From Cytophagales bacterium (GTDB lineage Bacteria; Bacteroidota; Bacteroidia; Cytophagales; JAPOQI01), in the NCBI GenBank assembly GCA_026710765.1, contig JAPOQI010000147.1:11182-75181 (forward strand): a stretch of 64,000 nt of DNA, in the 5' to 3' direction. Under the pieces are notes generated by a model. It had not been told where the DNA came from. It saw only the letters and a list, made by a program, of their open reading frames with translations, and ran no database searches. Position 1 is the first letter of the stretch, and each line of letters opens with the position of its first letter. Positions 10,714 through 64,000 of this stretch are shown here, in pieces. Position numbers and translations under genes: made by a program.

Positions 10714-10752
10714 CTTTGTATCAGAACCCAGGGAAACTAAGCCCTACTTCCA

Positions 10753-11625
10753 TTATTCCTCTGGATCTCCATCCTCCGGATCCTCATCCTCCGGATCCTC
10801 ATCCTCTGGATCTCCATCCTCCGGATCCTCATCCTCCGGATCCTCATCCTCCGGATCCTCATCCTCCGGATCCCCGTCCTCCGGATCCTCATCCTCCGGA
10901 TCCCCGTCCTCTGGATCCTCATCCTCTGGAACCCGGTCTAGATTTGAACTAGTTCTGAGTTTTATTTTGATCTGATCAAAAGGGAGAACATGAACGGCAT
11001 CCTCTAGTTCTTTTGTTTCAAAATCTCCTTTCCGTTCAGCCAAAAGGAGGCTATCAACACTACCTGTTTGAAGTTGTTTGGCAATGCGGGAAAAAGTTTT
11101 GTAGATGCCTGTATTTAAGCAAGAATCTTTGGGACACAGGATAATCCAATCATAGAGGACACTATCTGTTTTTCCTACCCGTTCTGCAGGTTCACCAAAC
11201 TGATCTTTGGGGAAGATCAATTTATGATTTAGAAACCATGTCTCTGAAAAATCTTCCAAACGCGGCTCCCCCCTGAGGGATGATGGTTCACAGTCATGTG
11301 CGGCTAGTACCCCCACCTGTATTTGTTTTTTCTCCGTGTCTATTCCTAGAAGTCTGACTCTAGAAAAGTTTATATCATGGGGTCCTCCTGATTCTACAAA
11401 ACCCTCAAACTTAACAGGGCCAAAATTAATGGGTCTACCCTGCTCGTCTTGTGCGAGGAGAACCTCCTCTGTGAGACTTATAGGGGCTACGGGTACGTAC
11501 TTATAGCACGTGTCATAACTCGTGATGTCCCGAGAATCTACAAACTCCTCGGGCCCAGGACAGCCTGCCAAAAACACTAGGGCCGTCAAGCCGGAACACA
11601 GAACAAATATTTCCTTCAGTTTCAT
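10753..11625 (-). CDS. Lipoprotein of unknown function with a C-terminal (PEDED/PEDGD)n acidic repeat
   Basis: Signal peptide and lipobox LAGC. I recognise no family for the ~230-aa N-terminal domain. The C-terminal ~55 aa are encoded by the 15-bp tandem repeat. Confidence 0.6.
   Translation of the reverse strand: MKLKEIFVLCSGLTALVFLAGCPGPEEFVDSRDITSYDTCYKYVPVAPISLTEEVLLAQDEQGRPINFGPVKFEGFVESGGPHDINFSRVRLLGIDTEKKQIQVGVLAAHDCEPSSLRGEPRLEDFSETWFLNHKLIFPKDQFGEPAERVGKTDSVLYDWIILCPKDSCLNTGIYKTFSRIAKQLQTGSVDSLLLAERKGDFETKELEDAVHVLPFDQIKIKLRTSSNLDRVPEDEDPEDGDPEDEDPEDGDPEDEDPEDEDPEDEDPEDGDPEDEDPEDEDPEDGDPEE
10763..10927 (-). repeat. Tandem repeat of 11 x 15 bp (ggatcctcatcctcc and variants), in frame within the lipoprotein gene
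   Basis: I counted the units directly. They run 10763-10777, 10778-10792 ... 10913-10927. Variants include ggatctccatcctcc and ggatccccgtcctcc. Confidence 0.95.
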
Positions 11626-11829
11626 CTAATCCGATACTGCGTACAGAAGCACTTGGATAAGTTCCAAGTCCAAAACTATCCGAATTTTAGGAAAAAAAGA
11701 ATGAAAAACCTATGCAGATCAAGGAAAATTTTCGCAAGTGGGATATAAGTCTGGGATGCCTAGCGGGTATGGAGAAAAGATTGTGGATCTTCTGCACGGA
11801 TATATCTTTATTTTCTCTTTGTTTAGGAT

Positions 11830-14142
11830 ATGGAATCTACAGATTCTCTTCTCTCTGATCTTAATGATGCCCAACGTAAAGCCGTTCTGCATGGGAAGGG
11901 TCCTGCCTTGTTGTTGGCGGGGCCAGGTTCGGGGAAGACAAGAACGCTTGTTTGTAGAATAGTTTATTTGTTGTGCCAGGGGGTATCACCTGCCAACATA
12001 TTGACGCTTACATTCACAAACAAGGCCTCTCGGGAGATGCGTGACCGAGTTAAGAATCTCTTGAAGAACGGATCCCATAGTCGAGATCTCTGGATGGGAA
12101 CCTTTCATGCCATTTTTGCACGGCTACTGAGGATAGAATCAGATGCCCTGGCATACACATCTAAATTTAGCATTTATGATACAGAGGATACTAAGAGACT
12201 GATTAGGTCTATTCTTAAGGAGAAATCCTTGGAATCAGATGTTAAGCCATCTACGATCATGGATCGCATCTCAAGGGCAAAGAATCAACTTATTTCGTGG
12301 GAGGCCTATGCCCTTAATCCCCAATATTTACGTCAAGATCAGCGATCAGGTATTTCTTGTGTAGCTGATATTTATCAGACCTATGTAAAAAGATGTTTAG
12401 AGGCAAATGCCATGGATTTTGATGATCTACTTTATAATACCTATCATCTCCTGAATAAGAACCCAGATATTTTAGAGGAATATCAGCAGCGATTTCAACA
12501 TATCTTGGTGGATGAATATCAGGATACCAATTCCTTACAATATGCCATTTTGAAAAAACTCTTGGTGGCGCCTAAGAATTTTTATGTTGTGGGGGATGAT
12601 GCCCAGAGTATTTATGGTTTCAGGGGGGCTGAGGTGGGGCACATGCTTGATTTTCGCAAAGATTATCCTGAGGCATCAGTTTATCCCTTGGAACAAAATT
12701 ATCGTTCTACTCCACAGATTGTGAAGGCTTCCAATTTTCTTATTAAGAATAACAAACAACTTTCTAAAGAACTGTGGACGGAGAATCCAGAAGGTCATAG
12801 ACTTTGTCTAAAAACCTGTGATAGTGATATAAAAGAGGCAGAGTGGATTGCCAGCATGTTGCTTCAGGAAAAAATTCAAGGGCACTATGCCAGCAAGGAA
12901 ATGGCTGTCTTATATCGTATTAATGCACAATCTCGGCTTATAGAAAAGGCGTTGCGGAAACGGGATTTGAATTATCGCATCTACGGTGGACTTTCCTTTT
13001 ATCAACGTAAAGAGATCAAAGATTTGTTGTCTTATTTGCTCTTGATAGTTAATCCGAAAAATGAAATAGCTCTTCGGCGGGTGATCAACTATCCCAAACG
13101 GGGAATTGGGGAAGGCTCTGTCCAAAAATTGATCGCGTTATCTCATGAAAGGCAAATCTCCTTGTGGGAGGCATTGAACCTTGCGAATCAGGTACTCCCT
13201 GAGAGAATTCTCCCTCCCGTACGGGATTTTATTGCTATGATAGGGGCTTTTCAAAAGCTGAATACAAAAGAAGATGCCTATGATATAACCTACAGGGTGG
13301 CTAAGGAGACGGGAATCTTGGAAGAACTGCATCAGGATAAAACGACAGAGGGAATCGGCAGATATGAAAATCTGAAAGAGCTCATAGGCTCCGTGAAAAC
13401 TTTCGTAGATGATCCCGAACAGGAGGAAGATAGGAGCCTGGGCGTTTTCCTTGAAGAGATCTCTCTCATGACCGACCTAGATAGGGAGAAAGAAAATAAA
13501 GATGCGATTACCCTCATGACGGTACATATGGCTAAAGGTTCAGAATACAAGGTGGTTTTTATTGCGGGCATGGAAGAAGAACTCTTTCCTTTTCTTAGCC
13601 ATTTTTCCAAGGACTCGCCTCAGCGGATAGAAGAGGAAAGACGTCTTTTTTATGTAGCCATGACTAGGGCTAAGGAAAAATTATTTCTCTCCCATGCCTT
13701 AGTACGTCGGAATTTTAAACAAATCAAAGAAACAGATCCTAGTCGTTTTCTTTCAGAAATAGACTCCTATCTAGAGGCTTCAAATACCTCCTTCCAACAC
13801 TCAGGTAATGCCTTCCAACCTAAGAATTCCTTTAATCCCCTTTCTAGCATTATTGCTACGCAGCGATATGTCAAGGAATCTCGTATGACTCCCTCATCGG
13901 CTGATATTAGATTTAGCCGTCCTTCTTCTCTGACTGAGATAAGGGTGGGTGTGCAGGTACGGCATTCTCTTTTTGGAAGAGGGCTCGTGAAAAAATTGGA
14001 AGGAGATAGAGGGTCCGAGGATAAAAGGGCTTACAAGGCATGGGTGGATTTCGACAAATACGGAGAAAAAAAACTTCTCCTTAGTTATGCCAGGTTGGAG
14101 GTCATTTCTGATCAGAATGCAAAGACTTCCCGAGAAGTATAA
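11830..14142 (+). CDS. UvrD/PcrA/Rep-family ATP-dependent DNA helicase (SF1)
   Basis: 770 aa with Walker A AGPGSGKT, TFTNKA, DEYQDTN, VGDDAQSIYGFRGA, QNYRS and a C-terminal VHMAKGSEY...YVAMTRA. Confidence 0.9.
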   Translation: MESTDSLLSDLNDAQRKAVLHGKGPALLLAGPGSGKTRTLVCRIVYLLCQGVSPANILTLTFTNKASREMRDRVKNLLKNGSHSRDLWMGTFHAIFARLLRIESDALAYTSKFSIYDTEDTKRLIRSILKEKSLESDVKPSTIMDRISRAKNQLISWEAYALNPQYLRQDQRSGISCVADIYQTYVKRCLEANAMDFDDLLYNTYHLLNKNPDILEEYQQRFQHILVDEYQDTNSLQYAILKKLLVAPKNFYVVGDDAQSIYGFRGAEVGHMLDFRKDYPEASVYPLEQNYRSTPQIVKASNFLIKNNKQLSKELWTENPEGHRLCLKTCDSDIKEAEWIASMLLQEKIQGHYASKEMAVLYRINAQSRLIEKALRKRDLNYRIYGGLSFYQRKEIKDLLSYLLLIVNPKNEIALRRVINYPKRGIGEGSVQKLIALSHERQISLWEALNLANQVLPERILPPVRDFIAMIGAFQKLNTKEDAYDITYRVAKETGILEELHQDKTTEGIGRYENLKELIGSVKTFVDDPEQEEDRSLGVFLEEISLMTDLDREKENKDAITLMTVHMAKGSEYKVVFIAGMEEELFPFLSHFSKDSPQRIEEERRLFYVAMTRAKEKLFLSHALVRRNFKQIKETDPSRFLSEIDSYLEASNTSFQHSGNAFQPKNSFNPLSSIIATQRYVKESRMTPSSADIRFSRPSSLTEIRVGVQVRHSLFGRGLVKKLEGDRGSEDKRAYKAWVDFDKYGEKKLLLSYARLEVISDQNAKTSREV

Positions 14143-27909: not shown

Positions 27910-29226
27910 ATGAGTTCTAATATTCCAACCCGATCTATCTTCTGCCGTGATAACCTAGATGTCCTGGAAGGAATTAATAGCTCCTGCATAGACCTGATAT
28001 ATTTAGACCCCCCCTTCAACAAGAATAAAACCTTCACCGCACCCATAGGTTCCCATGCGGAGGGTGCGAGCTTCAAGGATATCTTCCGAAAAGAGGATTT
28101 GAAGGGGGAGTGGTTGAAGACGATAGAAGAAGATGAACCTAAATTGCATTCTTTTCTTGAGAGCGTTCAGACCATGGGGGGCAGGAATAGTCATGATTTT
28201 TGCTATTTGGCATATATGGGGATTAGATTATTGGAATGCCATAGGATACTCAAAGATACAGGGTCTATCTATCTGCATTGCGATCCCACGATGTCGCATT
28301 ATCTCAAGCTCCTCATGGATTGTATTTTTGAAGAGAATAATTTTAGGAATGAGATTGTGTGGAATAAAGGTTTTAGGGGAACTCCAAGAAAAACCCGCTA
28401 TCAGCAAGAACACGAAATTGTCTTTTATTACGGAAAAGGAAAAAATGTCATCTGGAATCAACAAACTGTTTCCTATAAAAATAAAAAGATGTCCCGTTAC
28501 AATAAGAGAGATGAAGAGGGAAACAAATATGCTTTGGTGAAACGTAAACGTACAGACGGAACCATTTACTATGGTCGCACATATCCCAAAGGAAAGCGAA
28601 TCGGAGACGTTATACATATTCCCACACTAGCCTCCACTTCCCGAGAACGAACGCATTATCCTACGCAGAAACCCCTGGCTTTGCTGGAACGAATTATTAA
28701 AACCTCCTCTAATGAGGGCGATTTGATCCTGGATCTCTTTTGTGGGTGTGCCACCACCTGTGTGGCTGCGGAGAAATTGGAACGAAAATGGATCGGCATA
28801 GATGTTTCCATCACGGCTTATAATTTGGTCAAGCGGCGACTTGCCAAAGAAGTGGAGGGCAAAGAAAATGGACAAGCGGGTATGCTCTTTTGGGAGGAGA
28901 AAATCAAATATCAACAGAAGCTCCCCAAACGGACGGATCAAGGTGTAGATTATCGGGAGAAAAAATATATTTATGTGATTAGTCATCCCAAATATCCTGG
29001 GGAGTATAAGGTAGGTATTGCGAAGGATCTCAAGAAAAACTTCTCAGGCTATCAAAGGACTGATCCGGAAAGAGCTTATGAATACGAGTATTCACGTTTG
29101 AGTCCTCGGTTCAGGGAGGTGGAGAAGCATATTCATGAGGTCTTTCCTAATAAGCATGAATGGGTGCAAGCTCCATTGGAAGAGATTATTGCAGAGATTA
29201 AGGGAGTAGATAAAGCTAGGATATGA
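27910..29226 (+). CDS. Beta-class N6-adenine/N4-cytosine DNA methyltransferase fused to a C-terminal T5orf172 (GIY-YIG-like) domain
   Basis: Motif IV LIYLDPPFN lies near the N-terminus. Motif I DLFCGCATTCVAAEKLERKWIGID lies at aa ~275-300, giving the beta permutation. The C-terminal ~90 aa (YIYVISHPKYPGEYKVGIAKDL......EVEKHIHEVFPNKHEWVQAPLEEI) match the T5orf172/MUG113 pattern. Confidence 0.85.
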   Translation: MSSNIPTRSIFCRDNLDVLEGINSSCIDLIYLDPPFNKNKTFTAPIGSHAEGASFKDIFRKEDLKGEWLKTIEEDEPKLHSFLESVQTMGGRNSHDFCYLAYMGIRLLECHRILKDTGSIYLHCDPTMSHYLKLLMDCIFEENNFRNEIVWNKGFRGTPRKTRYQQEHEIVFYYGKGKNVIWNQQTVSYKNKKMSRYNKRDEEGNKYALVKRKRTDGTIYYGRTYPKGKRIGDVIHIPTLASTSRERTHYPTQKPLALLERIIKTSSNEGDLILDLFCGCATTCVAAEKLERKWIGIDVSITAYNLVKRRLAKEVEGKENGQAGMLFWEEKIKYQQKLPKRTDQGVDYREKKYIYVISHPKYPGEYKVGIAKDLKKNFSGYQRTDPERAYEYEYSRLSPRFREVEKHIHEVFPNKHEWVQAPLEEIIAEIKGVDKARI

Positions 29227-29261: not shown

Positions 29262-29336
29262 CGAGGTGTGGCGCAGTCCGGTTAGCGCACCACGTTAGGG
29301 ACGTGGGGGTCGCTGGTTCAAATCCAGTCACCTCGA
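29262..29336 (+). tRNA. tRNA-Pro with anticodon AGG as read from the cloverleaf
   Basis: Hand-folded cloverleaf: acceptor CGAGGTG/CACCTCG, D arm GCGC-AGTCCGGTTA-GCGC, anticodon arm CCACG-TTAGGGA-CGTGG, variable GGGTC, T arm GCTGG-TTCAAAT-CCAGT, discriminator A. It closely resembles E. coli tRNA-Pro (…CTTCG TTCGGGA CGAAG…), but position 34 is A. No CCA is encoded. Confidence 0.85.
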
Positions 29337-29352
29337 CTCGTGTATATATGCT

Positions 29353-29994: not shown

Positions 29995-30714
29995 ATGAGC
30001 AGTAAAAATAAAGGCAAAGATTACGAACTCGAGACCAAAGAGAGGTACGAGGAACTGCTTAGGCAGGATGGGGTCACCGAGACCGTTGAACACAGCAAGA
30101 AACTAATGGACTCTAGTGCTAAGAAGCCTGCACAGGTGGATGTTTATTGGGAATTTGAAAGGGCAGGCATCCTGTACAGGACGGCCATAGAATGCAAGGA
30201 TTATAAAAGACCTGTCTCCGTAGACAAGATACGTGCATTTGCTTCCGTTTTAAGTGATCACAAGCTGAATGGAATATTTGTTGCCCGAAATGGATTTCAG
30301 TCCGGGGCAAAGGAGTATGCAGAAGCTGAGGGGATAGAGCTGGTAGAACTCAGAAAACCTAAGGCAGAGGACCTCAAAGGTAGGATTTTTAATATCCACT
30401 TGCGTGTAGAGATGTGGCTGCCAAAACTTCTTCACGTGAACGTTGAAGTCCACAGTAGCGAACGTTCCCGTTATCCTGAAGGGAAGGTGCAAGGAAGAAC
30501 ATATAGAGGAGATGATGGTGTTTATGATACTAAGAGGAACTTGATCAAGTCTTTTAATGACATGATCAGTGCTTTACCGCGTCCTCCTGAGGACAAGAAC
30601 CCTAATGAAGAACTTAAGCACGGTTTTCCCTTTGAGGGGGGGTATATAAAGGCTGGACAGGATGAATTTCACAGGATAGAACGTATTCAATTCAGATATT
30701 CTTGGAGAGTTTAG
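29995..30714 (+). CDS. Mrr_cat-like PD-(D/E)xK restriction-endonuclease-fold protein with an uncharacterised C-terminal half
   Basis: The N-terminal ~120 aa carry G.DYE...QVDVYWEF....YRTAIECKDYKRPVSVDKIRAFASVL....GIFVARNGFQSGAKEYAEAEGIELVEL. This is a D...ExK core followed by the typical trailing helix region. I recognise no family for aa ~125-239. Confidence 0.7.
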   Translation: MSSKNKGKDYELETKERYEELLRQDGVTETVEHSKKLMDSSAKKPAQVDVYWEFERAGILYRTAIECKDYKRPVSVDKIRAFASVLSDHKLNGIFVARNGFQSGAKEYAEAEGIELVELRKPKAEDLKGRIFNIHLRVEMWLPKLLHVNVEVHSSERSRYPEGKVQGRTYRGDDGVYDTKRNLIKSFNDMISALPRPPEDKNPNEELKHGFPFEGGYIKAGQDEFHRIERIQFRYSWRV

Positions 30715-53861: not shown

Positions 53862-54866
53862 TTGAAAGTTTTATCTTGGGTAATTATGGGACGAGTCATA
53901 CAATTTCGGGAGGCACTTAAAGAAGCCTTGCAAGAGGAGATGCAAAGGGATGAGAAGGTCTTTCTTATGGGAGAAGAGGTTGCTGAGTACAATGGTGCTT
54001 ACAAGGTGAGTCAGGGGTTGTTGGACGAGTTTGGCCCTGAACGTGTGGTGGATACCCCCATTTCGGAATTGGGTTTTGCGGGTTTAGGGGTAGGGGCTGC
54101 TATGAATGGTCTACGCCCTATTATAGAATTCATGACCTTTAATTTTTCTCTTGTAGCCATTGATCAGGTGATCAATAGTGCTGCCAAAATGTTATTTATG
54201 TCGGGAGGACAATGTCCTGTACCCATCGTGTTTCGGGGACCTACCGGAAATGCAGGGCAATTATCTGCACAGCATTCTCAAAATTTTGAAAATTGGTATG
54301 CCAACACGCCAGGATTAAAGGTTGTCGTTCCCTCCACACCCTATACCGCTAAGGGATTACTTAAATCAGCTATCCGAGATGATAATCCCGTAATATTTAT
54401 GGAATCAGAACTTATGTATGGGGATAAAGAAGAAGTTCCTGAGGAAGAGTATCTCTTAGCGATTGGAAAGGCAGAAGTACTTCAAGAGGGAAAGGACATA
54501 AGTCTCCTCTCCTTTGGAAAAATAATGAAATTGGCAGTCGCCGCAGCAGAAATCTTAGGTAAAGAGGGCAAATCGGTAGAACTGATAGATTTGCGAACCG
54601 TCCGTCCCATAGATTATGAAACCATTTGTGCTTCAGTGCAGAAAACCAATAGATTGGTGATTGTAGAGGAGGCTTGGCCCCTGGCTTCCATCTCTTCTGA
54701 GATTGCCTATCATGTACAACGTTATGCTTTTGATTATCTAGATGCGCCTGTTCAACGGGTCAGCAATTTGGACATTCCACTGGGTTATGCACCTACTTTG
54801 GTAGAGGCTAGTTTGCCCAGCCTTAAGAGGATATTAGATTCCCTTCGCCAGGTGCTTTACGAGTAG
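53862..54866 (+). CDS. pdhB: 2-oxoacid (pyruvate) dehydrogenase E1 component, beta subunit
   Basis: FREALKEALQEEMQRDEKVFLMGEEVAEYNGAYKVSQGL...DTPISE...GLRPI. The likely start is MGRVIQ at 53886. No E1-alpha gene is adjacent. Confidence 0.88.
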   Translation: MKVLSWVIMGRVIQFREALKEALQEEMQRDEKVFLMGEEVAEYNGAYKVSQGLLDEFGPERVVDTPISELGFAGLGVGAAMNGLRPIIEFMTFNFSLVAIDQVINSAAKMLFMSGGQCPVPIVFRGPTGNAGQLSAQHSQNFENWYANTPGLKVVVPSTPYTAKGLLKSAIRDDNPVIFMESELMYGDKEEVPEEEYLLAIGKAEVLQEGKDISLLSFGKIMKLAVAAAEILGKEGKSVELIDLRTVRPIDYETICASVQKTNRLVIVEEAWPLASISSEIAYHVQRYAFDYLDAPVQRVSNLDIPLGYAPTLVEASLPSLKRILDSLRQVLYE

Positions 54867-54911
54867 TTTTGAAATCTCTGAAGCTCTTGGATTCATCGTT
54901 CATATCCTTTC

Positions 54912-56111
54912 GTGTATAGTTTAGGGTCTTATTTGCATCGGGGTCTTACCTTCTTAAATAATAGGTATTTCCCTTCCCGCAAACGGCTGTCCACCCTGAT
55001 GATATATGCGACAGATCTATGTGACTCAGCGTGTAAGCATTGTCTGATCTGGGCCAAAAGACCCGTTAAACATCTTCCTTTCGAGACGATCCGGCAGCTA
55101 CTCCAAAAAAATAAATGCGTTTCCTCCCAAACCCTTGTAGGATTAGAAGGAGGGGAATTCCTGCTCCATCCTGAAGCCATGGAAATCCTAGCCTGGATGC
55201 GAAAACATCATCCCCGATTTGATTTATTATCCAATTGTTTGAAGCCCGATAAGCTGATTCGTGCTGTGGAAAAATATCCCCCTCAGAGATTATATGTTTC
55301 CCTGGATGGAGACAAGGATACCTATCTTTATATGCGAGGAAAAGAGGGTTATGATTCGGTTCTTTCGGTAATTCAGACCCTTCATAAACGGGTTCCGATT
55401 TCAGTCATGTTTTGTCTATCGCCTTATAATGATTTTGAAGACATGAAACATGTGGGGGAGGTATCTCAGAAATATGGGGTAGATATGCGGGTAGGCGTTT
55501 ATAACGACATTGCTTTTTTTGATACCCTAGAAAAGGCTCACGAGACCGATATAGCAGAGAAAAAGGATAAGACAAAGCTTGTTTACAAAGAGGTTAAGCC
55601 GATTAAGGATAAAATACAGATGGACAAAGGGAAATCAGAACAAAAAGATCTCTCCACTCCCAAGCATCAGGTCCGTGATTACCAACCTTTTCACGAACAG
55701 ATACCCTCTGTCGTCTCGGATTTTCCCGAGAATCGGGAATTTCTTATTCTCTACGAAGCCTGGCGCCGAAAGAAATTAAAATTAAAATGTCATAGCATTT
55801 TAGATAGTTTAATTGTGCTTCCGGATGGAACAGTCCCGATTTGTCAAAACCTGGATACCAAATTAGGATCCATATACCAAGACTCCCTGGATCATATTTT
55901 TAATAGTCCCTCTTCTCAGAAAATTCAGGACAAGCATGTTCATCATTGTAATCAGTGTTGGATCAATTTTCACAGGAAATATGACATAGTCCTGTACCGT
56001 ACCTTTGAACGGTTTTTTGGCACACGTACAACAGCAAAATTATTGGGTTATTATCAATGGTCAGATGAACCCATCACGTATTCTTCGCTGATGAAGAAGT
56101 ACAGCCATTAG
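54912..56111 (+). CDS. Radical SAM enzyme with a Cys-containing C-terminal (SPASM/twitch-like) region
   Basis: CxxxCxxC cluster motif within YATDLCDSACKHCLIW, GGEFLLHP glycine-rich SAM motif, C-terminal PICQNLDTKLGSI...HHCNQCW, and a Lys/Asp-rich insert at aa ~225-265. GTG start. Confidence 0.75.
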   Translation: MYSLGSYLHRGLTFLNNRYFPSRKRLSTLMIYATDLCDSACKHCLIWAKRPVKHLPFETIRQLLQKNKCVSSQTLVGLEGGEFLLHPEAMEILAWMRKHHPRFDLLSNCLKPDKLIRAVEKYPPQRLYVSLDGDKDTYLYMRGKEGYDSVLSVIQTLHKRVPISVMFCLSPYNDFEDMKHVGEVSQKYGVDMRVGVYNDIAFFDTLEKAHETDIAEKKDKTKLVYKEVKPIKDKIQMDKGKSEQKDLSTPKHQVRDYQPFHEQIPSVVSDFPENREFLILYEAWRRKKLKLKCHSILDSLIVLPDGTVPICQNLDTKLGSIYQDSLDHIFNSPSSQKIQDKHVHHCNQCWINFHRKYDIVLYRTFERFFGTRTTAKLLGYYQWSDEPITYSSLMKKYSH

Positions 56112-56125
56112 AAACACCATTATTA

Positions 56126-56956
56126 GTGCTTCCTTTTCGGGTTTACATTGTTCATTTGTTTCGGGCATCCCATCGTCGGGTTCATATGGATGAGCAGCTT
56201 CGTTTGGCAGGGATCACGAATTATAGCTATGTGGAGGGAGTGGATGGTCGAAAGCTTGGGAAGGCAGATCTATCCTTGCATGCTACCTCGGATGCGAAAT
56301 TAAGTTTCTCTGAATTGGGTTGTTATTTGAGTCATGTACGGGCTTGGGAGCAGATGGATCGGGATGGGGTGGAAGTGGCTTTGATCTTGGAAGACGATGT
56401 CATTATTTCGGCAGACCTGGTTTCTGTATTATCCCGGATTAATAAATTTCCCCCAAATTGGGAGCTGATACACGTTGCGGATATTCCTGCTGATCCCAAT
56501 GCACCACATCAACTAAATCATTGGGGTATTGTCGATCTGGATTCTTCCTATGTGATAGGAACATCCATGTCCTACCGAATTACAGGCTTGGGTTATTTGG
56601 TTCATCTTCGGGGCGTAAAGAATATTCTTCCTTTTCTCAGAAAGCCCATTTTCAAACCCGTAGATCACATGCTTTTTGAGTACAGCTCTAACTATCATTT
56701 TTTTCATAGCATCAAACCTTCTTTGGTCTTCTTGAGGAGGGATATAAAATCTGAACTACGAAACAAAGATTCATTCAACAATCTGGGCGAACACCTAAAC
56801 TGGCAAACAAGAATAGCAGGTATACTTTCCAAGTGGACCTGGAATATTTTATCTTTTTTCCCAGTTCCAGCCAAGAGATATACAACTCGGAGAGAACAGA
56901 ACATGCTCATGTATTTTCTACATTTGCTACGAGACTATTTTTTCCGTAGGAGATGA
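56126..56956 (+). CDS. Glycosyltransferase family 25 paralog 1 (most divergent; GTG start)
   Basis: VYIVHL.R...RR.HMDEQL..AGI, VDGRKL, ELGCYLSH..AW, ALILEDDVI. The pattern is as in the LgtB/Lic2-type GT25 family. Confidence 0.8.
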   Translation: MLPFRVYIVHLFRASHRRVHMDEQLRLAGITNYSYVEGVDGRKLGKADLSLHATSDAKLSFSELGCYLSHVRAWEQMDRDGVEVALILEDDVIISADLVSVLSRINKFPPNWELIHVADIPADPNAPHQLNHWGIVDLDSSYVIGTSMSYRITGLGYLVHLRGVKNILPFLRKPIFKPVDHMLFEYSSNYHFFHSIKPSLVFLRRDIKSELRNKDSFNNLGEHLNWQTRIAGILSKWTWNILSFFPVPAKRYTTRREQNMLMYFLHLLRDYFFRRR

Positions 56957-56977
56957 GTGCAATAAGCCTTTAAAGAT

Positions 56978-57814
56978 ATGCTTCCTTTTCCTGTTTATAT
57001 TATTCATTTGTTTCGGGCTTCTCATCGTAGGGTTCATATGGATGAGCAGCTTCGTTTGGCAGGGATCACGAATTATAGCTATGTAGAAGCCGTGGATGGT
57101 CGAAAATTGGGTAAGGAAGATCTATCCTTGCATTGTTCTCCGGACACGAAATTAAGTTTCTCTGAATTGGGTTGCTATTTGAGTCATGTACGGGCTTGGG
57201 AGCAGATGGATCGGGATGGGGTAGAGATGGCTTTGATCTTGGAGGACGATGTCATTCTTAGCACAGACATAGTTCCCGTGCTATCTCAAACTTCCCGTTT
57301 TCCGCCAAACTGGGAACTGATACATATTGCGGAGAACGGCTATCGGTTGACCCCTCATCATGTATTGAATCACTGGAGAAGGAAAAAACTGACTTCGTCC
57401 TATCAGATAGGAATATCTATGTCCTCACGGGTTACGGGTATGGGTTATTTGGTCCATCAACGTGGGCTAAAGAGATCTTTGCCTCGCCTTAGAAAGGCCG
57501 TAGAAATTCCCGTTGACCTCGTTCTTTTTGACCATGATAGGGGAAGTTCTTTTTATCACAGCGTCAAACCTTCCTTGATCTTCTTGAGGAGGGATATAAA
57601 ATCTGATATACGGGATACTAAGACGGTAGAATGGGAAAAACGTCCTAATTCTCTGATGGAAAAAATTCATATTTTTGTGTTTGGGTCAATTTTGAATTTC
57701 CTCCGTTTTTTCCCTCCGCCCAGGAGAATACGTATGCCCTATCCTCGGGGGACAATAAGATTTAGATATTATCTCATTCGCCTGGTTTGGGATTACTTTT
57801 TCCGCAGGAGATGA
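56978..57814 (+). CDS. Glycosyltransferase family 25 paralog 2
   Basis: Same signature as paralog 1, with the tail RFRYYLIRLVWDYFFRRR. Confidence 0.8.
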   Translation: MLPFPVYIIHLFRASHRRVHMDEQLRLAGITNYSYVEAVDGRKLGKEDLSLHCSPDTKLSFSELGCYLSHVRAWEQMDRDGVEMALILEDDVILSTDIVPVLSQTSRFPPNWELIHIAENGYRLTPHHVLNHWRRKKLTSSYQIGISMSSRVTGMGYLVHQRGLKRSLPRLRKAVEIPVDLVLFDHDRGSSFYHSVKPSLIFLRRDIKSDIRDTKTVEWEKRPNSLMEKIHIFVFGSILNFLRFFPPPRRIRMPYPRGTIRFRYYLIRLVWDYFFRRR

Positions 57815-57834
57815 CTTAGATATCCTTTAAAGAT

Positions 57835-58674
57835 ATGCTTCCTTTTCCGGTTTATATTGTTCACCTGTCTCGGAACGTCCATCGTCGGGTTCATATGGAT
57901 GAGCAGCTTCGTTTGGCAGGGATCACGAATTATAGCCATGTAGAGGGAGTAGATGGTCAAAAACTGGGTAAGGCAGATCTATCCTTGCATTGTTCTCCGG
58001 GTGCGAAATTGAGTTTGGGTGAATTGGGCTGTTATTTGAGTCATAGGCAGATTTGGGAGCAGATGGATCGGGATGAGGTGGAGATGGCTTTGATCTTGGA
58101 AGACGATGTCATTCTTAGCACAGACATAGTTCCCGTGCTATCTCAAACTTCCCGTTTTCTGCCAAACTGGGAACTGATACATGTTGCGGATATCAGCTAC
58201 CAATTGAGTCATCCTCATATATTGAATCATTGGGGAAGAAGAAGACTGGCTTTGTCCTATCAGATAGGAATATCTATGTCCTCACGGATTACCGGTATGG
58301 GTTATTTGATTCATCAACGTGGGCTAAAGAGATCTTTGCCTCGCCTCAGAAAGCCTATAAAACTGCCCATTGACTCTACCCTCTTTGACTATAGCAGGGG
58401 GGTGAGTTTTTTTCATAGCATCAAACCTTCTTTGATATCCTTAAAAAAAGATATAGAATCTGACATACGGGATAATAGAACCGAGATAGAGTGGAAAAAA
58501 GGTCCTTCAAACCTGTCATCCATCGAGAGAATTTTTCCTTTTTTACATGAGAATATTTGGGTTTTTCTTTCTTTTTTTCCTCCGCCTCGGAGAATATATG
58601 ATCCGTGGGGAAAAATAAGATTTAGATATTATCTCATTCGCCTGGTTTGGGATTACTTTTTCCGCAGGAGATGA
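57835..58674 (+). CDS. Glycosyltransferase family 25 paralog 3
   Basis: Same signature as paralog 1. The 3' end and following spacer are identical to those of paralog 2. Confidence 0.8.
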   Translation: MLPFPVYIVHLSRNVHRRVHMDEQLRLAGITNYSHVEGVDGQKLGKADLSLHCSPGAKLSLGELGCYLSHRQIWEQMDRDEVEMALILEDDVILSTDIVPVLSQTSRFLPNWELIHVADISYQLSHPHILNHWGRRRLALSYQIGISMSSRITGMGYLIHQRGLKRSLPRLRKPIKLPIDSTLFDYSRGVSFFHSIKPSLISLKKDIESDIRDNRTEIEWKKGPSNLSSIERIFPFLHENIWVFLSFFPPPRRIYDPWGKIRFRYYLIRLVWDYFFRRR

Positions 58675-58695
58675 CTTAGATATCCTTTAAAAGGT

Positions 58696-59541
58696 ATGCT
58701 TCCTTTTCCGGTTTATATTGTTCATTTGTTTCGGGCTTCTCATCGTCGGGTTCATATGGATGAGCAGCTTCGTTTGGCAGGGATCACGAATTATAGCTAT
58801 GTAGAAGCCGTGGATGGTCAAAAACTGGGGAAAGCAGATCTATCCTTGCATTGTTCTCCGGATGCGAAATTGAGTTTGGGTGAGTTAGGCTGTTATTTGA
58901 GTCATAGGCAGATTTGGGAGCAGATGGATCGGGATGGGGTAGAGATGGCCTTGATCTTGGAAGACGATGTCATTCTTAGCGCAGACATAGTTCCCGTGCT
59001 ATCTCAGGCTTCCCGTTTTCCGCCAAACTGGGAACTGATACATGTTGCAGATATCAGCTACCAATTGAGTCATGCTCATGTATTGAATCATTGGGGAAGA
59101 AGAAGCCTGGCTCTGTCCTATCAGATAGGAATATCTATGTCCTCACGGGTTACGGGTATGGGTTATTTGGTCCATCAACGTGGGCTAAAGAGATCTTTGC
59201 CTCGCCTTGGAAAGGATGTAGACATTCCTGTTGACAATGTTCTTTTTGACTATGCAAAGGGGGGTTATTTTTTTCATAGTATGAAGCCTTCTTTGGTATT
59301 CTTAAAAAAAGATATAGAATCTGACATACGGGTTAATAGAACCGAGATAGAGTGGAAAAAAGGTCCTTCAAACCTGTCATTCCTCGAGAGAATTTTTGTT
59401 TTTTTACGTAATAATATTTGGGTTTTTCTTTCTTTTTTTCCCCCGCCTCGGAGAATATATGTTTACTATCCGTGGGGAAAAATGAGATTTAGATATTATA
59501 TCTTTCGCCTGGTCTGTGATTACTTTTTCCGCAGAAGATAA
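58696..59541 (+). CDS. Glycosyltransferase family 25 paralog 4
   Basis: Same signature as paralog 1. The 3' end overlaps the convergent GT-C-like gene by 22 bp. Confidence 0.8.
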   Translation: MLPFPVYIVHLFRASHRRVHMDEQLRLAGITNYSYVEAVDGQKLGKADLSLHCSPDAKLSLGELGCYLSHRQIWEQMDRDGVEMALILEDDVILSADIVPVLSQASRFPPNWELIHVADISYQLSHAHVLNHWGRRSLALSYQIGISMSSRVTGMGYLVHQRGLKRSLPRLGKDVDIPVDNVLFDYAKGGYFFHSMKPSLVFLKKDIESDIRVNRTEIEWKKGPSNLSFLERIFVFLRNNIWVFLSFFPPPRRIYVYYPWGKMRFRYYIFRLVCDYFFRRR

Positions 59542-60827
59542 TGAATCTGTTTATGTCTTCTTTGTTGAAATTCCCAGACCCAACATGCTGATAAGATCAG
59601 ATACTCAGCAAGGATCCAGAGATAGGGATGTTGGTAGCCTGTGGAATCATAACCTATATATGACCAGCAGATCAGATAAGACCAAAGCAATGGAAAAATT
59701 AGGCCCTGAAAGACTCCCAAACCTATCAAGGGAATCAGATACCAAGGATGTATCGTGCTGCTAAGGAGTAGGTAGAAGAGATACAGCCATGGGGCTATAC
59801 TGAGCATATCGGATCTTCTGCGTATATAAGATATTAGCAGAATCCCAAAGGCAGATAGCATGCCTAAAAAAGGACCTATATAACGAGTCAGATCCCCCTG
59901 ACCTATGTAAATCCCGATCCCCTTGATCAGAGCAAAAACACCCGAATTGAATTCAAATTGGCGAAAATATAGATCCAAACTTTTCCACATCCCGACAGAG
60001 AATCCCATAGGTACAAAGAGTACAAAGAGAAAAAAACATAGAAGGACACATAGGAGGATTTTCTTTCTGGACGATACATGAAAAAATAACTGAGGTAAAA
60101 AAACTAGGGGGTATAATTTGGTGGCGATGGCACATGCAAAGGATAAAAGGGGCTGATATAGACTTCTCTTCCGAGAAAATCCCCAAGCTGTCAGCAAAAG
60201 GAATGCCAGAACTAGGGCTTCAAAATGTACATTTCCTATGCCCTCCCAGATGACTAGTGGATTTAAAAAATAAGCTGCCTGTTGAATGGGCCTAAGCTGA
60301 TATTTTTGAAAGATGTGCAGGACAACCATTTCCGCACCCAAGATGATAAATCGCAGCAGAGACAAAGAAAAAAGATATTCATGGGCTGAGTATCCAAGGG
60401 CTGCCAATGCGAACCCTAGTTGATGAAAAAGAGGATAAGGACTGTGATAATGGGGAGAATTGAGATGATTATAAAGGTCTTCAGGATAGGCCTTCCCTTG
60501 AACTATTCTCTGTTGGACCCATTGTGTGGGGGTGTACTCAAAAGGAGAATGTCCTTCTAACCACAGCCATCCATCCCATAGAAAACGATAGAAATCATCC
60601 GACAGATGGGGAAGACAAAAGAAAAAGGGAAGTCTAAATAAGAGTCCCCATTGCCATATATTCCGAATGGATAAGGAAGGACTTTTGAGAAGTAAAAAAT
60701 AACCTAAAAAACTTCCCAAAAACAGTCCTTGCACAAGCCAAACCTCGTTTCTGTCTCCGAAGGAGCCCAGACATATGTGCAGTAAAAGGCAAACAAAAAC
60801 AATAGCCGCCAGACCCCGACTAGGCAA
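59520..60827 (-). CDS. Polytopic GT-C-like membrane glycosyltransferase (DUF2029/mannosyltransferase-like)
   Basis: 435 aa with ~11 TM helices. The first periplasmic loop carries the acidic motif SDDFYRFLWDGWLWLEGHSPF, which is typical of polyprenyl-phosphate-sugar-dependent GT-C enzymes. Confidence 0.6.
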   Translation of the reverse strand: MPSRGLAAIVFVCLLLHICLGSFGDRNEVWLVQGLFLGSFLGYFLLLKSPSLSIRNIWQWGLLFRLPFFFCLPHLSDDFYRFLWDGWLWLEGHSPFEYTPTQWVQQRIVQGKAYPEDLYNHLNSPHYHSPYPLFHQLGFALAALGYSAHEYLFSLSLLRFIILGAEMVVLHIFQKYQLRPIQQAAYFLNPLVIWEGIGNVHFEALVLAFLLLTAWGFSRKRSLYQPLLSFACAIATKLYPLVFLPQLFFHVSSRKKILLCVLLCFFLFVLFVPMGFSVGMWKSLDLYFRQFEFNSGVFALIKGIGIYIGQGDLTRYIGPFLGMLSAFGILLISYIRRRSDMLSIAPWLYLFYLLLSSTIHPWYLIPLIGLGVFQGLIFPLLWSYLICWSYIGYDSTGYQHPYLWILAEYLILSACWVWEFQQRRHKQIHYLLRKK

Positions 60828-62325
60828 TACCCTTATCTTTGAACTCCCCCAGAATACGCCATTTGAACTGAAATCTCAAACAGGAATAGCGAAGTATTAT
60901 GAAATTTCCCAGACATAGACTCAAATGAAAAAATATAGCAGAATAGTCCTCCCACATCACAGCCAAGGATATACCCAAGATCGCATAAGAAATAGAACAT
61001 GTCTCCATCCATGGGAATCTTGAAATCCTAAGATAGTCCCAGTCTTGATGGGTATATCTTAGTCCTCCTTTTTTGGGGGTTCTATGAAAATGATTATTCC
61101 CTTGTCTGCGAAAAAGACCCGAAAGCAATGCCATTGTGTTTTGCAAGGCTAAGGCTGTATGGATAGAAATAAAGAGAAAGGTTTGGACAAGGTAAAATTC
61201 TCGTCTCTCCTTGGACCTATCTAAGCCAGAGGCCGTGAAATAATAGGGGATGATGAATAAAGAACCTAAAAAGAAAAAAGTTCCAATATTGAACCACGGA
61301 CCTATATCCGATATCTGTTTGAGATAAAGCATAGGAACACTTAAAAGAAGTACAGATAGTATGAAGAAGGAAATAAAATTGCTCCCCATGTGGAATACCC
61401 TCAAGATGCGTTGGGTTAAGGGGATTTCTTCCTTAAAAATAGAACGGAGATGTTTAGCAATGTTTTGGGCGCCCCCTTTGGACCAACGATATTGTTGTTT
61501 TTTCAAATCCTCTGCCAAGACCGGCAATTCACCCGGACATACTACATGATTCAGGTAATGATATTTCCATCCTTTGAGTTGGGCCCTACAGCTGATATCC
61601 AAATCTTCAGCCACAGTATCTGTTTCCCATCCTCCTGTATCTTCTATACAAGTTTTTCGCCAAATACCTGCGGTTCCATTGAAACTCAACCAATAGGCCT
61701 TAGTATATCGGGCAAGTTGTTCGTACTTGAAAAAGGCATTCAGACCAAAAGCTTGAAGTTTGGTTAGTCCGTTTTCTTTTTCGTTTAGATAACCCCATCG
61801 GGTCTGTACGAAACCGACTCGTTCATTTTTGAAATAAGGGATGGTATTGAGAAGAAAATCATTCGGTGGAACAAAATCTGCATCAAAGATTGCTATATAA
61901 TCTCCCCTGGCATGGGGCAAAGCATGTTGTAGCGCGCCTCCTTTGTACCCATCCCGATCTGATCTTCTAATAACCCGTATTCTTTTCTGCTTTTCATGAT
62001 CTTGTTGGGCTATCCATTTGTCTATGTACTGAGAGGTTTCATCTGTGGAGTCATCCAAGACATGTATTTCTGTCTTATCGGAGGGATATATTATTCGTGT
62101 ACAGGCTTCTAAGAGACGTGTGATTACATATTTCTCATTGTAAACGGGAAGTTGTATGGTCACGGAGGGATATTCACCGCCTTCTTGAGTGGGTGACAAA
62201 GGTCTTAATCGCTGAGATTTAGACCGAAATGAAGCCGCAAAAAAGAAATGAAACCGAATGATATTGAAAGTCAATATACCGATCAGGCAAAAGATGTAAA
62301 CGGCAAGTGTAAAATAAGAAATCAT
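60820..62325 (-). CDS. Membrane-embedded GT2 glycosyltransferase, CslA/MgdA-like (D,D,D,QxxRW type)
   Basis: VTIQLPVYNEKYV, VLDDSTDET, FDADF, TVAEDLD and QQYRWSKG, with N- and C-terminal TM helices. Confidence 0.85.
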   Translation of the reverse strand: MISYFTLAVYIFCLIGILTFNIIRFHFFFAASFRSKSQRLRPLSPTQEGGEYPSVTIQLPVYNEKYVITRLLEACTRIIYPSDKTEIHVLDDSTDETSQYIDKWIAQQDHEKQKRIRVIRRSDRDGYKGGALQHALPHARGDYIAIFDADFVPPNDFLLNTIPYFKNERVGFVQTRWGYLNEKENGLTKLQAFGLNAFFKYEQLARYTKAYWLSFNGTAGIWRKTCIEDTGGWETDTVAEDLDISCRAQLKGWKYHYLNHVVCPGELPVLAEDLKKQQYRWSKGGAQNIAKHLRSIFKEEIPLTQRILRVFHMGSNFISFFILSVLLLSVPMLYLKQISDIGPWFNIGTFFFLGSLFIIPYYFTASGLDRSKERREFYLVQTFLFISIHTALALQNTMALLSGLFRRQGNNHFHRTPKKGGLRYTHQDWDYLRISRFPWMETCSISYAILGISLAVMWEDYSAIFFHLSLCLGNFIILRYSCLRFQFKWRILGEFKDKGIA

Positions 62326-63011
62326 CGGTATTTGAATATCGTATATAAGATCTTATAGCCCGCCATGAGGACACCCCCAACCGTACCCGATATCTTTGAT
62401 TTACCTATTCGCTTCCGATAAGAAACAGGAACCTCTACCCAAGGGATCTTTTTTTTAACCGCCTTAATTTGCATTTCAATCGTCCATCCAAAATCCCGAT
62501 CCTGCATGTTCAGCGATTTTAGAGAGGGATAACGGATTGCCCTAAAGGGACCTAAATCGGTAAATTTAGCCTGATAAAGATGTTCTAAGAGATAGCATGC
62601 CAGGCGATTTCCAACATATTGTGGGAAGGTCATGGCATCCTTATCCTGCTTCCCCCTGAACCGAGAACCTATAACCATATCAGCCTCACCTTTGCGTATA
62701 GGATCCAAGATATATAGAATTTCTTCTGGATAATCTGAATAATCCCCATCCAAAAAAACAACCACATCAGGTTTGGGCACTTGCTGACTCAGGTAGGATA
62801 TTCCTTTCAGACATGCCTGACCATAGCCTCGTTGGGGTTCATGCAGGGCTGTAACACCATGGGCTTCTGCCAAGGAAAATGTTTTGTCCTCAGATCCATT
62901 ATCTATTACGATAACCTCGTCTATTTCCTCCATAGGAAGATCTTTAAGAACATGGGGAAGGGCAATTTCTTCATTCACAGCCGGAATTATTACCTTGACA
63001 ATCAAATTCAC
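62322..63011 (-). CDS. Soluble GT2 glycosyltransferase, polyprenyl-phosphate sugar synthase-like
   Basis: 229 aa with VIIPAVNEE, VIVIDNGSEDKT, FLDGDYSD and MVIGSR. It has 4-bp overlaps with both neighbouring genes. Confidence 0.8.
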   Translation of the reverse strand: MNLIVKVIIPAVNEEIALPHVLKDLPMEEIDEVIVIDNGSEDKTFSLAEAHGVTALHEPQRGYGQACLKGISYLSQQVPKPDVVVFLDGDYSDYPEEILYILDPIRKGEADMVIGSRFRGKQDKDAMTFPQYVGNRLACYLLEHLYQAKFTDLGPFRAIRYPSLKSLNMQDRDFGWTIEMQIKAVKKKIPWVEVPVSYRKRIGKSKISGTVGGVLMAGYKILYTIFKYR

Positions 63012-64000
63012 CTAGATCTGGGTAGAACCCGTTTGGGAGATCTTTTCCACTGAGCCCGAAGCACCTTTTGAATAGACCCTTTATCATAGCCACAAAGTTT
63101 ATGCAGTTCTTCGGGTTTTCCTTGCTTAATGATCTGATCTGGAATACCTAATCGGCGAACCGGAAGAAAATATTCATGTTGAGCTAAAAACTCCAAAATC
63201 GCAGACCCAAATCCGCCCATTAAACAACCATCTTCCAAGCTTATAATCTGTTCAAAAGATCCACAAATCTTGTGGAGCAGGTCTTCATCCAAGGGTTTTA
63301 CAAAACGCATATCATATAGGGCAGGAAATATGTTTTCAGCAGCCAACTCGTCCAAGACTTCCAAGGCTATATTTCCGATATGCCCTATGGATAGGATGGC
63401 TATTTTTTCTCCTTCCCGAAGACATCTCCCTTTGCCAATGGGAATTTTTTTCATGGGGGTTTTCCATTTAGGTGTAGTTCCTTTTCCTCGGGGATAGCGA
63501 ATGGAGAAAGGTCTTTGGGATCGTGATAATTGCATGGTGTAAAGAAAATTTCGCAGTTCTTCTTCGTTCAGCGGAGAAGCTATGATCAGATGGGGAAGAC
63601 AACGCATAAAAGCCAAATCATAGGCACCATGATGGGTTGCCCCATCTTCTCCCACCAATCCTCCCCGATCCAAGACAAAATTAACCGGCAAATTTTGGAC
63701 ACATACATCATGGATTAACTGATCATACCCACGTTGCATAAAGGTGCTGTAAATATGACAAAAAGGAATAAGTCCCTGCGTCACCATGCCCGCAGAGAAG
63801 GTCACCGCATGTTGCTCAGCTATACCCACATCAAAAACGCGATCAGGTAATTCTGCCATCATAATGTTCATAGAAGACCCCGAAGGCATAGCCGGCGTGA
63901 TCCCCATAATCTTATCATTTTTCCGAGCCAACTCAAGAAGACTATGTCCGAAGACCTCTTGATATTTTAAAGGACCTGGTTCAGAAGATGTTTGGGAAGA
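63008..64000 (-). CDS. dxs: 1-deoxy-D-xylulose-5-phosphate synthase, C-terminal ~330 aa. The gene continues beyond the right edge of the window.
   Basis: FDVGIAEQHAVTFSAGM, DRGGLVGEDGATHHG and a transketolase C-terminal domain. The frame stays open to position 64000 (…SSQTSSEPGPLKYQEVFGHSLLELARKND…). Confidence 0.93.
   Translation of the reverse strand, partial: SSQTSSEPGPLKYQEVFGHSLLELARKNDKIMGITPAMPSGSSMNIMMAELPDRVFDVGIAEQHAVTFSAGMVTQGLIPFCHIYSTFMQRGYDQLIHDVCVQNLPVNFVLDRGGLVGEDGATHHGAYDLAFMRCLPHLIIASPLNEEELRNFLYTMQLSRSQRPFSIRYPRGKGTTPKWKTPMKKIPIGKGRCLREGEKIAILSIGHIGNIALEVLDELAAENIFPALYDMRFVKPLDEDLLHKICGSFEQIISLEDGCLMGGFGSAILEFLAQHEYFLPVRRLGIPDQIIKQGKPEELHKLCGYDKGSIQKVLRAQWKRSPKRVLPRSR

Follow-up and report, generated by a model that had tools for sequence, protein, structure and literature searches.

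Four tandem GT25 glycosyltransferase genes with a mosaic structure in a Cytophagales genome

Recombination between neighbouring glycosyltransferase genes has been described in Helicobacter pylori. In the passage of PMC5381349 that cites Pohl et al. 2012, jhp0562 and beta-(1,3)galT (jhp0563) are adjacent homologous genes of lipopolysaccharide (LPS) galactosyltransferases, and intragenomic recombination between them is reported to produce functional chimeric alleles and to explain the loss of one copy. The possibility of such recombination had been raised earlier (PMC2806470), and both genes are named as members of the glycosyltransferase family GT25 in a 2026 preprint. This pair is the closest described case to the subject of the present study, an array of four GT25 genes found in a stretch of 64,000 nucleotides (nt) of DNA from an uncultured bacterium of the order Cytophagales; the whole of this stretch is called the window below. 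Like jhp0562 and beta-(1,3)galT, the genes of the window are neighbouring same-strand GT25 paralogs of high nucleotide identity that have exchanged sequence. The H. pylori locus differs in having two copies against four in the window, and it is characterised by variation between strains and during infection, by poly-C tracts and by C-terminal heptad repeats, whereas the array has no repeat tracts and is known from one assembly. The array is a larger example of recombining adjacent GT25 paralogs already described in H. pylori. A limited literature search found no earlier description of recombining GT25 paralogs in Bacteroidota.

The array also resembles the lgtABCDE locus of Neisseria, where paralogous glycosyltransferases likewise lie in one operon-like locus and where LgtB and LgtE belong to GT25 in the CAZy classification. 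A passage of PMC2191774 describes open reading frames (ORFs) 1 and 2 of the lgt locus as homologous to ORFs 4 and 5, a strain that has no lgt genes other than lgtA and lgtE is on record (PMC2192810), and phase variation of the locus is attributed to poly-G tracts in a passage of PMC2192423. However, the Neisseria locus interleaves different families, whereas the window array is purely GT25 and lacks poly-G tracts. The repeat or homopolymer tract that is the hallmark of phase-variable lipooligosaccharide (LOS) genes of the lgt or Haemophilus lic2A type was not found in the region 56001-59600. Among enzymes of known structure, GLT25D1/COLGALT1, Mimivirus R655 and a bacterial beta-1,4-galactosyltransferase (PDB 9evj, 9crz, 8xc8) have the fold, the DxD motif and the catalytic Asp in common with the window proteins, but the identity is 14-24% and the acceptors are different; GLT25D1 acts on collagen hydroxylysine and carries an extra inactive GT2 domain. 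Overall, the window copies are only about 20-30% identical to characterised GT25 enzymes.

The genes of the array, and the block that is invariant in all of them, are as follows.

56126-56956, + strand: GT25 copy 1, 276 amino acids (aa), GTG start codon, NCBI MCY4419553.1
56978-57814, + strand: GT25 copy 2, 278 aa, the most mosaic copy
57835-58674, + strand: GT25 copy 3, 279 aa
58696-59541, + strand: GT25 copy 4, 281 aa, its 3′ end overlapping a convergent MptA/B-like gene
56178-56227, + strand: 50-nt block of copy 1, invariant in four of four copies by nucleotide alignment, the others starting at 57030, 57887 and 58748

All four ORFs are intact and full-length, lie on the same strand and have aligned start codons. 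The spacers between copies 1 and 2, 2 and 3, and 3 and 4 are 21, 20 and 21 nt long, and the start-to-start distances are 852, 857 and 861 nt. This layout had been noted in an earlier reading of the same DNA made without database searches (the sequence-only reading), and each of its figures was found again. The protein alignment displays an MLPF(P/R)VYI.HL N-terminus and a DYFFRRR C-terminal end in all four copies, and it contains every shared motif quoted in that reading between these two ends; the 50-nt block proposed there was likewise found to be invariant. The block codes for RVHMDEQLRLAGITNYS, within the donor-binding half of the protein. The nucleotide identity is 0.90 between copies 3 and 4, 0.82 between copies 2 and 3, 0.83 between copies 2 and 4, and 0.67-0.69 between copy 1 and the rest. 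At the protein level the four copies are 60-85% identical, copy 1 being the most divergent (60-61% to the other three). The sharing of sequence among the copies is far beyond chance. Tandem Repeats Finder reported no tandem repeat here, the longest period that it reports (500 nt) being shorter than the array unit.

The assignment to GT25, for which the sequence-only reading had suggested a search with the PF01755 hidden Markov model, is supported by Pfam, by sequence comparison with the PDB and by the predicted fold. PF01755 matches all four copies with 69.5-75.8 bits (cut-off 24) over profile positions 3-198 of 199, and the NCBI annotation of the four proteins is also GT25. A PDB search with the four-copy profile returned GT25 chains only (Mimivirus R655, COLGALT1 and a bacterial GT25 protein). 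The AlphaFold2 model of copy 4 has a GT-A fold, with a mean predicted local distance difference test score (pLDDT) of 82.9, above 88 for residues 1-120, and a predicted template modelling score (pTM) of 0.82. Foldseek comparison of this model placed COLGALT1, Mimivirus R655 and the bacterial GT25 beta-1,4-galactosyltransferase at ranks 1-18, with E-values from 1e-14 to 4e-9.

An alignment of 66 family members has as its invariant residues R17, C66, L68, S69, H70, L86, E89, D90, D91 and D180 (D180 in the numbering of copy 4), and all four copies retain them. E89-D90-D91 occupies the DxD position, and through the ILEDD motif it may be equated with DxD 461-463 of GLT25D1. D180 sits in a conserved P-[VI]-D motif, which probably corresponds to the LPVD of GLT25D1 containing D522. 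The latter residue is the catalytic base in an inverting SN2 mechanism (PMC12987934). With their catalytic residues intact, the four copies look functional.

Neither a signal peptide nor a transmembrane segment was found in any of the four proteins. The last ~70 residues are modelled as two low-confidence helices and contain 13-17 Lys/Arg and 12-19 aromatic residues, for which peripheral membrane binding appears to be the likeliest role. Similar aromatic and basic tails are present in closer GT25 relatives (P0124, P0125, P0126 and P0145), basic tails also end several members of other GT25 arrays, and the length of 276-281 aa is within the usual range of the family. Therefore, the hydrophobic and basic C-terminal extension, which had earlier been taken for a special trait of the array, is an ordinary one.

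The distribution of identical sequence among the copies is patchy. Copies 1 and 2 have SFSELGCYLSHVRAWEQ in common and copies 3 and 4 have SLGELGCYLSHRQIWEQ, as recorded in the sequence-only reading and seen again in the protein alignment. The longest identical tracts involve copy 2.

57397-57490, + strand: 94-nt tract of copy 2, identical to 59115-59208 of copy 4, the longest conversion tract
57754-57831, + strand: 78-nt tract comprising the 3′ end of copy 2 and the greater part of the spacer behind it, identical to 58614-58691, the corresponding stretch of copy 3 and its spacer
57030-57101, + strand: 72-nt tract close to the start of copy 2, identical to 58748-58819 of copy 4

Thus, the common 3′ end and spacer of copies 2 and 3, given earlier as about 78 nt, is an exact match of 78 nt starting at 57754 and 58614, and the previously noticed sharing between copies 2 and 4 consists of exact blocks of 94 and 72 nt. 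Exact-match mining also yielded a block of 58 nt common to copies 2 and 3 and blocks of 55 and 47 nt common to copies 1 and 2. Copy 2 is affiliated with copy 4 at its 5′ end and at alignment positions 420-513, with copy 1 at positions ~177-218 and 603-622, and with copy 3 at its 3′ end and in the spacer.

Among 59 parsimony-informative sites, 40 group copies 1 and 2 against 3 and 4, 12 group copies 1 and 3 against 2 and 4, and seven group copies 1 and 4 against 2 and 3. The minority patterns are concentrated at positions 45-114 and 454-559 of the coding sequence alignment, and the clustering of incompatible sites is significant (permutation test of the pairwise homoplasy index type, p <= 0.0002; runs test, p = 1e-4). 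A Sawyer-type tract test, run on 336 polymorphic sites, detected concordant runs of 29 sites between copies 2 and 3 (787-845) and between copies 2 and 4 (420-513), each with p < 1e-4. Tests with third codon positions only were weaker but pointed in the same direction (p = 0.01-0.02 for copies 2 and 3 and for copies 2 and 4).

The rate of synonymous substitution (dS) varies along the gene. For copy 1 against the others, codons 1-95 give a dS of 0.26-0.37, codons 96-185 one of 1.1-1.5 and codons 186-281 one of more than 1.8, which makes the first 95 codons 3-6 times less diverged at synonymous sites than the remainder. Since dS itself changes, gene conversion is preferred over uneven constraint on the protein; this is the strongest argument for it, and the pattern in copy 1 means that the first third of the gene was homogenised long after the first duplication. 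The mosaic pattern indicates gene conversion. The clustered incompatible sites, the significant tracts and the varying dS bear out the earlier statement that the copies do not fit a single tree.

It is another question whether the locus is built for variation. No inverted repeats of at least 20 nt were found in 54800-60900, and in 56001-59600 there were no repeats of 2-6 nt with at least four units, the longest homopolymers being G6, A7 and T7. No recombinase, integrase, invertase, transposase or mobile element was found among the window ORFs of at least 150 aa that were scanned. There were no truncated or silent donor copies in the array; all four genes are complete, possess the catalytic residues and are under purifying selection. 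Consequently, the designation of the locus as a cassette array or a diversifying system, put forward in the sequence-only reading, was not supported by these searches. In the interpretation preferred here, the mosaic arose as a by-product of homology between tandem copies and not through a dedicated variation mechanism.

Divergence among the copies is concentrated beyond the donor-binding half, as had been estimated (aa ~118-135 and ~165-260), and it is now placed at about aa 118-140, 172-196 and 205-262. The middle segment surrounds the catalytic Asp.

56639-56713, + strand: copy 1 segment that surrounds the catalytic Asp (codons 172-196); in the other copies at about 57491-57565, 58348-58422 and 59209-59283

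In codons 172-196 each copy is different, including copy 3 as compared with copy 4. For these two copies the segment has a nonsynonymous rate (dN) of 0.44 and a dS of 0.60, against a dS of 0.10-0.14 in the flanking segments, and no other part of this youngest pair comes near it in divergence. Since the synonymous sites diverge too, the difference is old and was not erased by conversion. Retained divergence of this kind would be expected if selection guarded a segment that determines specificity, and codons 172-196 are a candidate determinant of acceptor specificity. The suggestion that the divergence is tied to the acceptor is compatible with variation beside the catalytic Asp (PMC12987934). 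Whole-gene dN/dS is 0.31-0.45 for all pairs and therefore points to purifying selection on each copy.

In a collection of 5.8 billion proteins the four window proteins form four singleton clusters, all from one 95,090-nt NCBI contig of a metagenome-assembled genome (MAG), with the consecutive accessions MCY4419553-556 and the name 'Cytophagales bacterium'; the next-best match in this search was 26% identical over 78% of the query. At E <= 1e-30, only four proteins came out of an exhaustive profile search over 1.8 billion representatives. Exact look-ups with copy 4 matched no contig, and scans of the genome and metagenome contig collections with the four-copy alignment gave no match. Broader patterns retrieved from the same collections distant GT25 genes only, with identity of at most 42%.

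The exhaustive profile search recovered a protein (P0123) encoded at locus L001, on a 518-kb ENA contig with a guanine plus cytosine (GC) content of 52% that is syntenic with the window. The amino acid identity between the two loci is 70% for isochorismatase, 56% for cysteine desulfurase, 78% for PdhB and 67% for the radical SAM/SPASM protein. L001 carries a single GT25 gene after the radical SAM/SPASM gene, with the gene order and orientation of the window. Its product is 37-42% identical to each copy over the first 200 residues and 28-32% beyond them, and it retains the FFPPPKRRY and DYFRRKG tail motifs. Since this level is below the 60-85% found among the copies, all duplications post-date the split of the two lineages. 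One GT25 gene at the matching position of a syntenic locus agrees with the origin by tandem duplication assumed in the earlier reading; judging from these comparisons, the array is a lineage-specific amplification.

The GT25 gene of L001 (10001-10845) is interrupted by three or more frameshifts and one or more in-frame stop codons. The neighbouring radical SAM and rpsA genes have one frameshift each, so sequencing error contributes to the damage and the quality of this assembly is doubtful; the GT25 gene is clearly the most damaged one there and is probably a pseudogene. Between the window and L001, GT25 evolves much faster than its neighbours (37-42% against 56-78% identity), and by these signs it behaves as an accessory gene. 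The GT25 gene of L001 is followed by a ~600-nt low-complexity stretch (10855-11470) with Pro/Ser/Leu-rich repeats in several frames.

It seems reasonably probable that the array provides four co-expressed, membrane-associated GT25 enzymes, produced by lineage-specific amplification, which use the same donor sugar and different acceptors in the synthesis of a lipid-linked surface glycan. The ancestral state would be a single GT25 gene downstream of the radical SAM/SPASM gene, from which successive tandem duplications in this Cytophagales lineage gave four complete genes. Copy 1 appears to be the oldest, followed by copy 2, with copies 3 and 4 as the youngest pair. Each copy is predicted to be a cytoplasmic inverting GT-A glycosyltransferase, probably held at the membrane surface by its aromatic and basic C-terminal tail. 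Purifying selection together with ordinary homologous conversion between neighbours would have kept the donor-binding N-terminal half near-identical, and the copies would have stayed distinct in the segments next to the catalytic Asp and over the C-terminal third. Because the copies differ in these segments and have the donor half in common, four enzymes that use one nucleotide sugar and act on different acceptors are the most likely outcome. They may extend or branch a lipid-linked surface glycan, for which the LPS/LOS core is the default guess. The presence of lpxB in the window and of GT25 fusion proteins in an LPS-core-like setting in a more distant relative (L169, see below) is in favour of this explanation, as are old four- and five-gene arrays, which demonstrate that operons with several GT25 genes persist in other lineages.

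Several points weigh against it. The argument on acceptor specificity draws on homology to GLT25D1 and on the general architecture of GT-A enzymes. The assignment to LPS is weak; the array lies outside any recognisable LPS-core or O-antigen cluster, and Bacteroidota also make protein O-glycans and capsules. In the collections searched, the array is known from one assembly. In addition, dN/dS between copies 3 and 4 rises to 0.65-0.73 in the C-terminal two thirds, which leaves room for relaxed constraint or some positive selection in the youngest pair; the value of 1.2 for codons 213-262 of this pair comes from only two synonymous differences and is given no weight.

It is unlikely that the array is a locus of recombinational glycan variation, in which frequent conversion or unequal crossing-over generates chimeric enzymes and copy-number variants within the population and so alters the surface glycan, as described for the pair of H. 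pylori genes. The identical tracts of 72-94 nt within a background of 17-33% divergence imply fairly recent events, the faster evolution of GT25 relative to its neighbours fits this possibility, the decayed copy of L001 suggests an accessory gene under changing selection, and a precedent exists in H. pylori (the passage of PMC5381349 cited above; PMC2806470). However, a few conversion tracts are expected of any young tandem array, and neither repeat tracts nor inverted repeats nor a recombinase were found at the locus. Besides, every copy is intact and evolves under purifying selection. Each of the proteins forms a singleton cluster from one contig, and no close relative turned up in four scans of the collections. 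Still less likely is the bolder version, an active glycan-diversifying locus where recurrent conversion and unequal crossing-over reshuffle acceptor-site segments on a common donor half. If it were true, the population would display varied surface glycans, for example in escape from phage or host, and the two-gene mechanism of H. pylori would be extended to a four-gene modular system in Bacteroidota.

Improbable again by comparison is dosage amplification, that is, redundant copies that raise one activity and drift neutrally toward gene loss. In its favour, the copies do not differ in their donor half or catalytic residues, and the dN/dS of 0.65-0.73 noted above for the youngest pair suggests somewhat relaxed constraint. 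Yet copy 1, with dS > 1 over two thirds of its length, is still intact and has a dN/dS of ~0.3; furthermore, the divergence is concentrated around the catalytic Asp instead of being even, and the divergent segments were not homogenised by conversion. Finally, a partial assembly artefact, with a short-read assembler switching between paralogs or strains at shared blocks of this MAG contig to create false chimeras or copy number, is very unlikely: the exact blocks of 47-94 nt do exceed common assembler k-mers and wrong joins could occur, a caveat for any MAG with repeats that have such blocks in common, but the four ORFs are in frame and intact, the units differ in length (852, 857 and 861 nt), the spacers are consistent, several independent tracts join different pairs of copies, the dS gradient of copy 1 spans hundreds of nucleotides and cannot result from a single mis-join, and assemblers usually collapse such arrays and do not expand them.

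The array is a clean but fairly ordinary case of gene-family growth by tandem duplication and reveals no new mechanism. Its value is modest and lies in a natural experiment for GT25 enzymology, in which near-identical donor halves are combined with individual sequences in the Asp region and with natural chimeras. Bacterial structures of the family were solved only recently, and the array could help to show which parts of these enzymes determine acceptor specificity.

The number of GT25 domains was counted within +/-10 kb of 160 GT25 loci retrieved with family-level patterns, a sample biased toward multi-copy loci, which have more chances to match a pattern.

80 GTDB species genomes (drawn from a tally that also took in the window and earlier loci): one domain per locus, about 70; two, 5; three, 3; four, 1; five, 0
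80 metagenome contigs: one domain per locus, 61; two, 10; three, 5; four, 3; five, 1

Five consecutive same-strand GT25 genes were found at L165 (4390-8840), four genes each at L121, L125 and L129 (~9080-12510), and three each at L144, L146, L147 and L120. L125 is chromosomal and adjoins rpoD and dnaG. The four-domain locus among the GTDB genomes, L016, consists of two adjacent two-domain GT25 fusion proteins of 642 and 548 aa in a Gammaproteobacteria MAG (OZ244031.1; also surveyed as L169). These fusions follow a GalE-like epimerase gene and have a Kdo-kinase-family gene and a GT4 gene nearby, a setting that, by its predicted genes, is LPS-core-like. A further two-domain fusion is encoded at L002, and the two best full-length profile matches after the L001 gene (P0121 and P0122) are two-domain tandems as well. 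L017 has at least three copies with 49-72% identity, and L063 has a partial duplicate that is 99% identical.

Accordingly, the array is not unique in kind, contrary to the impression given in the sequence-only reading, and three- to five-gene GT25 arrays and two-domain fusions recur in bacteria. In the four- and five-gene arrays (L165, L121, L125 and L129) the paralogs are 33-62% identical at the amino acid level and the same types recur across contigs; for these reasons the arrays are considered old and stable, and their paralogs look stably subfunctionalised. The arrays and fusions of the survey have the architecture of the window array, in which three to five GT25 genes or domains follow one another on one strand with minimal spacers and with basic tails at the C-terminus, but the window copies are younger (60-85% identity), known from one genome and marked by fresh conversion tracts; they are 23-32% identical to members of the older arrays. 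The architecture recurs, and what is particular to the window array is the youth of its copies and the fresh tracts. No description of three- to five-gene GT25 arrays or two-domain fusions was found in the limited literature search.

The window as a whole is ordinary chromosomal DNA, with uppS, glnA-III, alaS, uvrD, mreBC, the gene of PBP2, rodA, clpP and tig, and also relA/spoT, purA, lpxB, guaB and pdhB. The GC content is 0.41-0.43 across the array and 0.40-0.45 over the window. Base composition gives no signal of horizontal transfer, the array being like the rest of the window, and this possibility was set aside. The array is enclosed by the following genes.

54912-56111, + strand: radical SAM/SPASM gene, 14 nt upstream of the array
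59520-63011, - strand: convergent conserved module encoding an MptA/B-like GT-C membrane protein (435 aa) and two GT2 proteins (501 and 229 aa), downstream of dxs

The radical SAM/SPASM protein is conserved at ~60% identity across Chitinophagaceae and other Bacteroidota (Flavihumibacter, Puia, Paraflavitalea and many MAGs). It falls far short of the cut-offs of the NCBIfam models, the best match, to the ACGX-system radical SAM protein, reaching 69 bits against 400, and it is a widespread enzyme without an assigned function. Among the loci compared, a GT25 gene follows it only in the window and in L001. Functional coupling to the array was rejected, the gene being widely conserved and followed by no GT25 gene in three other loci.

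The convergent module, which together with dxs spans 59520-63931 on the - strand, comprises an AglJ/DPM1-like GT2 (229 aa), a CelA/PgaC-like GT2 (501 aa) and a member of the MptA/B family (PF26314, GT87-like). By its predicted products it looks like a polyprenyl-phosphate-sugar-dependent periplasmic glycosylation system. Its three glycosyltransferase genes recur in other contigs of Cytophagales and Bacteroidota, with counterparts at L167 (5835-11377) and L168 (4568-8029). Coupling of the array to this module was also rejected, as L167 has the module and dxs without GT25 and L168 has the module without either. Copy 4 and the convergent MptA/B-like gene run into each other at their 3′ ends, with an overlap of 22 nt (59520-59541) and no terminator-like site between them. 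The array lies where two conserved blocks meet, and coupling to either of them could not be demonstrated.

No excess of promoter- or terminator-like sites was detected between the copies. Together with the spacers of 20-21 nt, this suggests that the four copies are co-transcribed; the radical SAM/SPASM gene is probably co-transcribed with them.

A few features of the window were noted apart from the array. The alanyl-tRNA synthetase ORF (8428-10713, - strand) encodes 761 aa and has no C-terminal DHHA1-type domain by Pfam; a typical bacterial enzyme has ~870 aa. A tRNA-Pro gene predicted by ARAGORN at 29262-29337 (+ strand) has the anticodon AGG in the loop TTAGGGA, with A at position 34. In bacteria an A at this position is, to our knowledge, unusual except in tRNA-Arg(ACG), and the prediction could reflect an expanded wobble inosine or a mis-call. 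This tRNA gene and purE are flanked by a gene of an N6/N4 DNA methylase fused to a T5orf172 domain (27910-29226, + strand) and by a gene of an Mrr_cat restriction endonuclease (29995-30714, + strand), which look like a small restriction-modification or defence islet among what are otherwise housekeeping genes.

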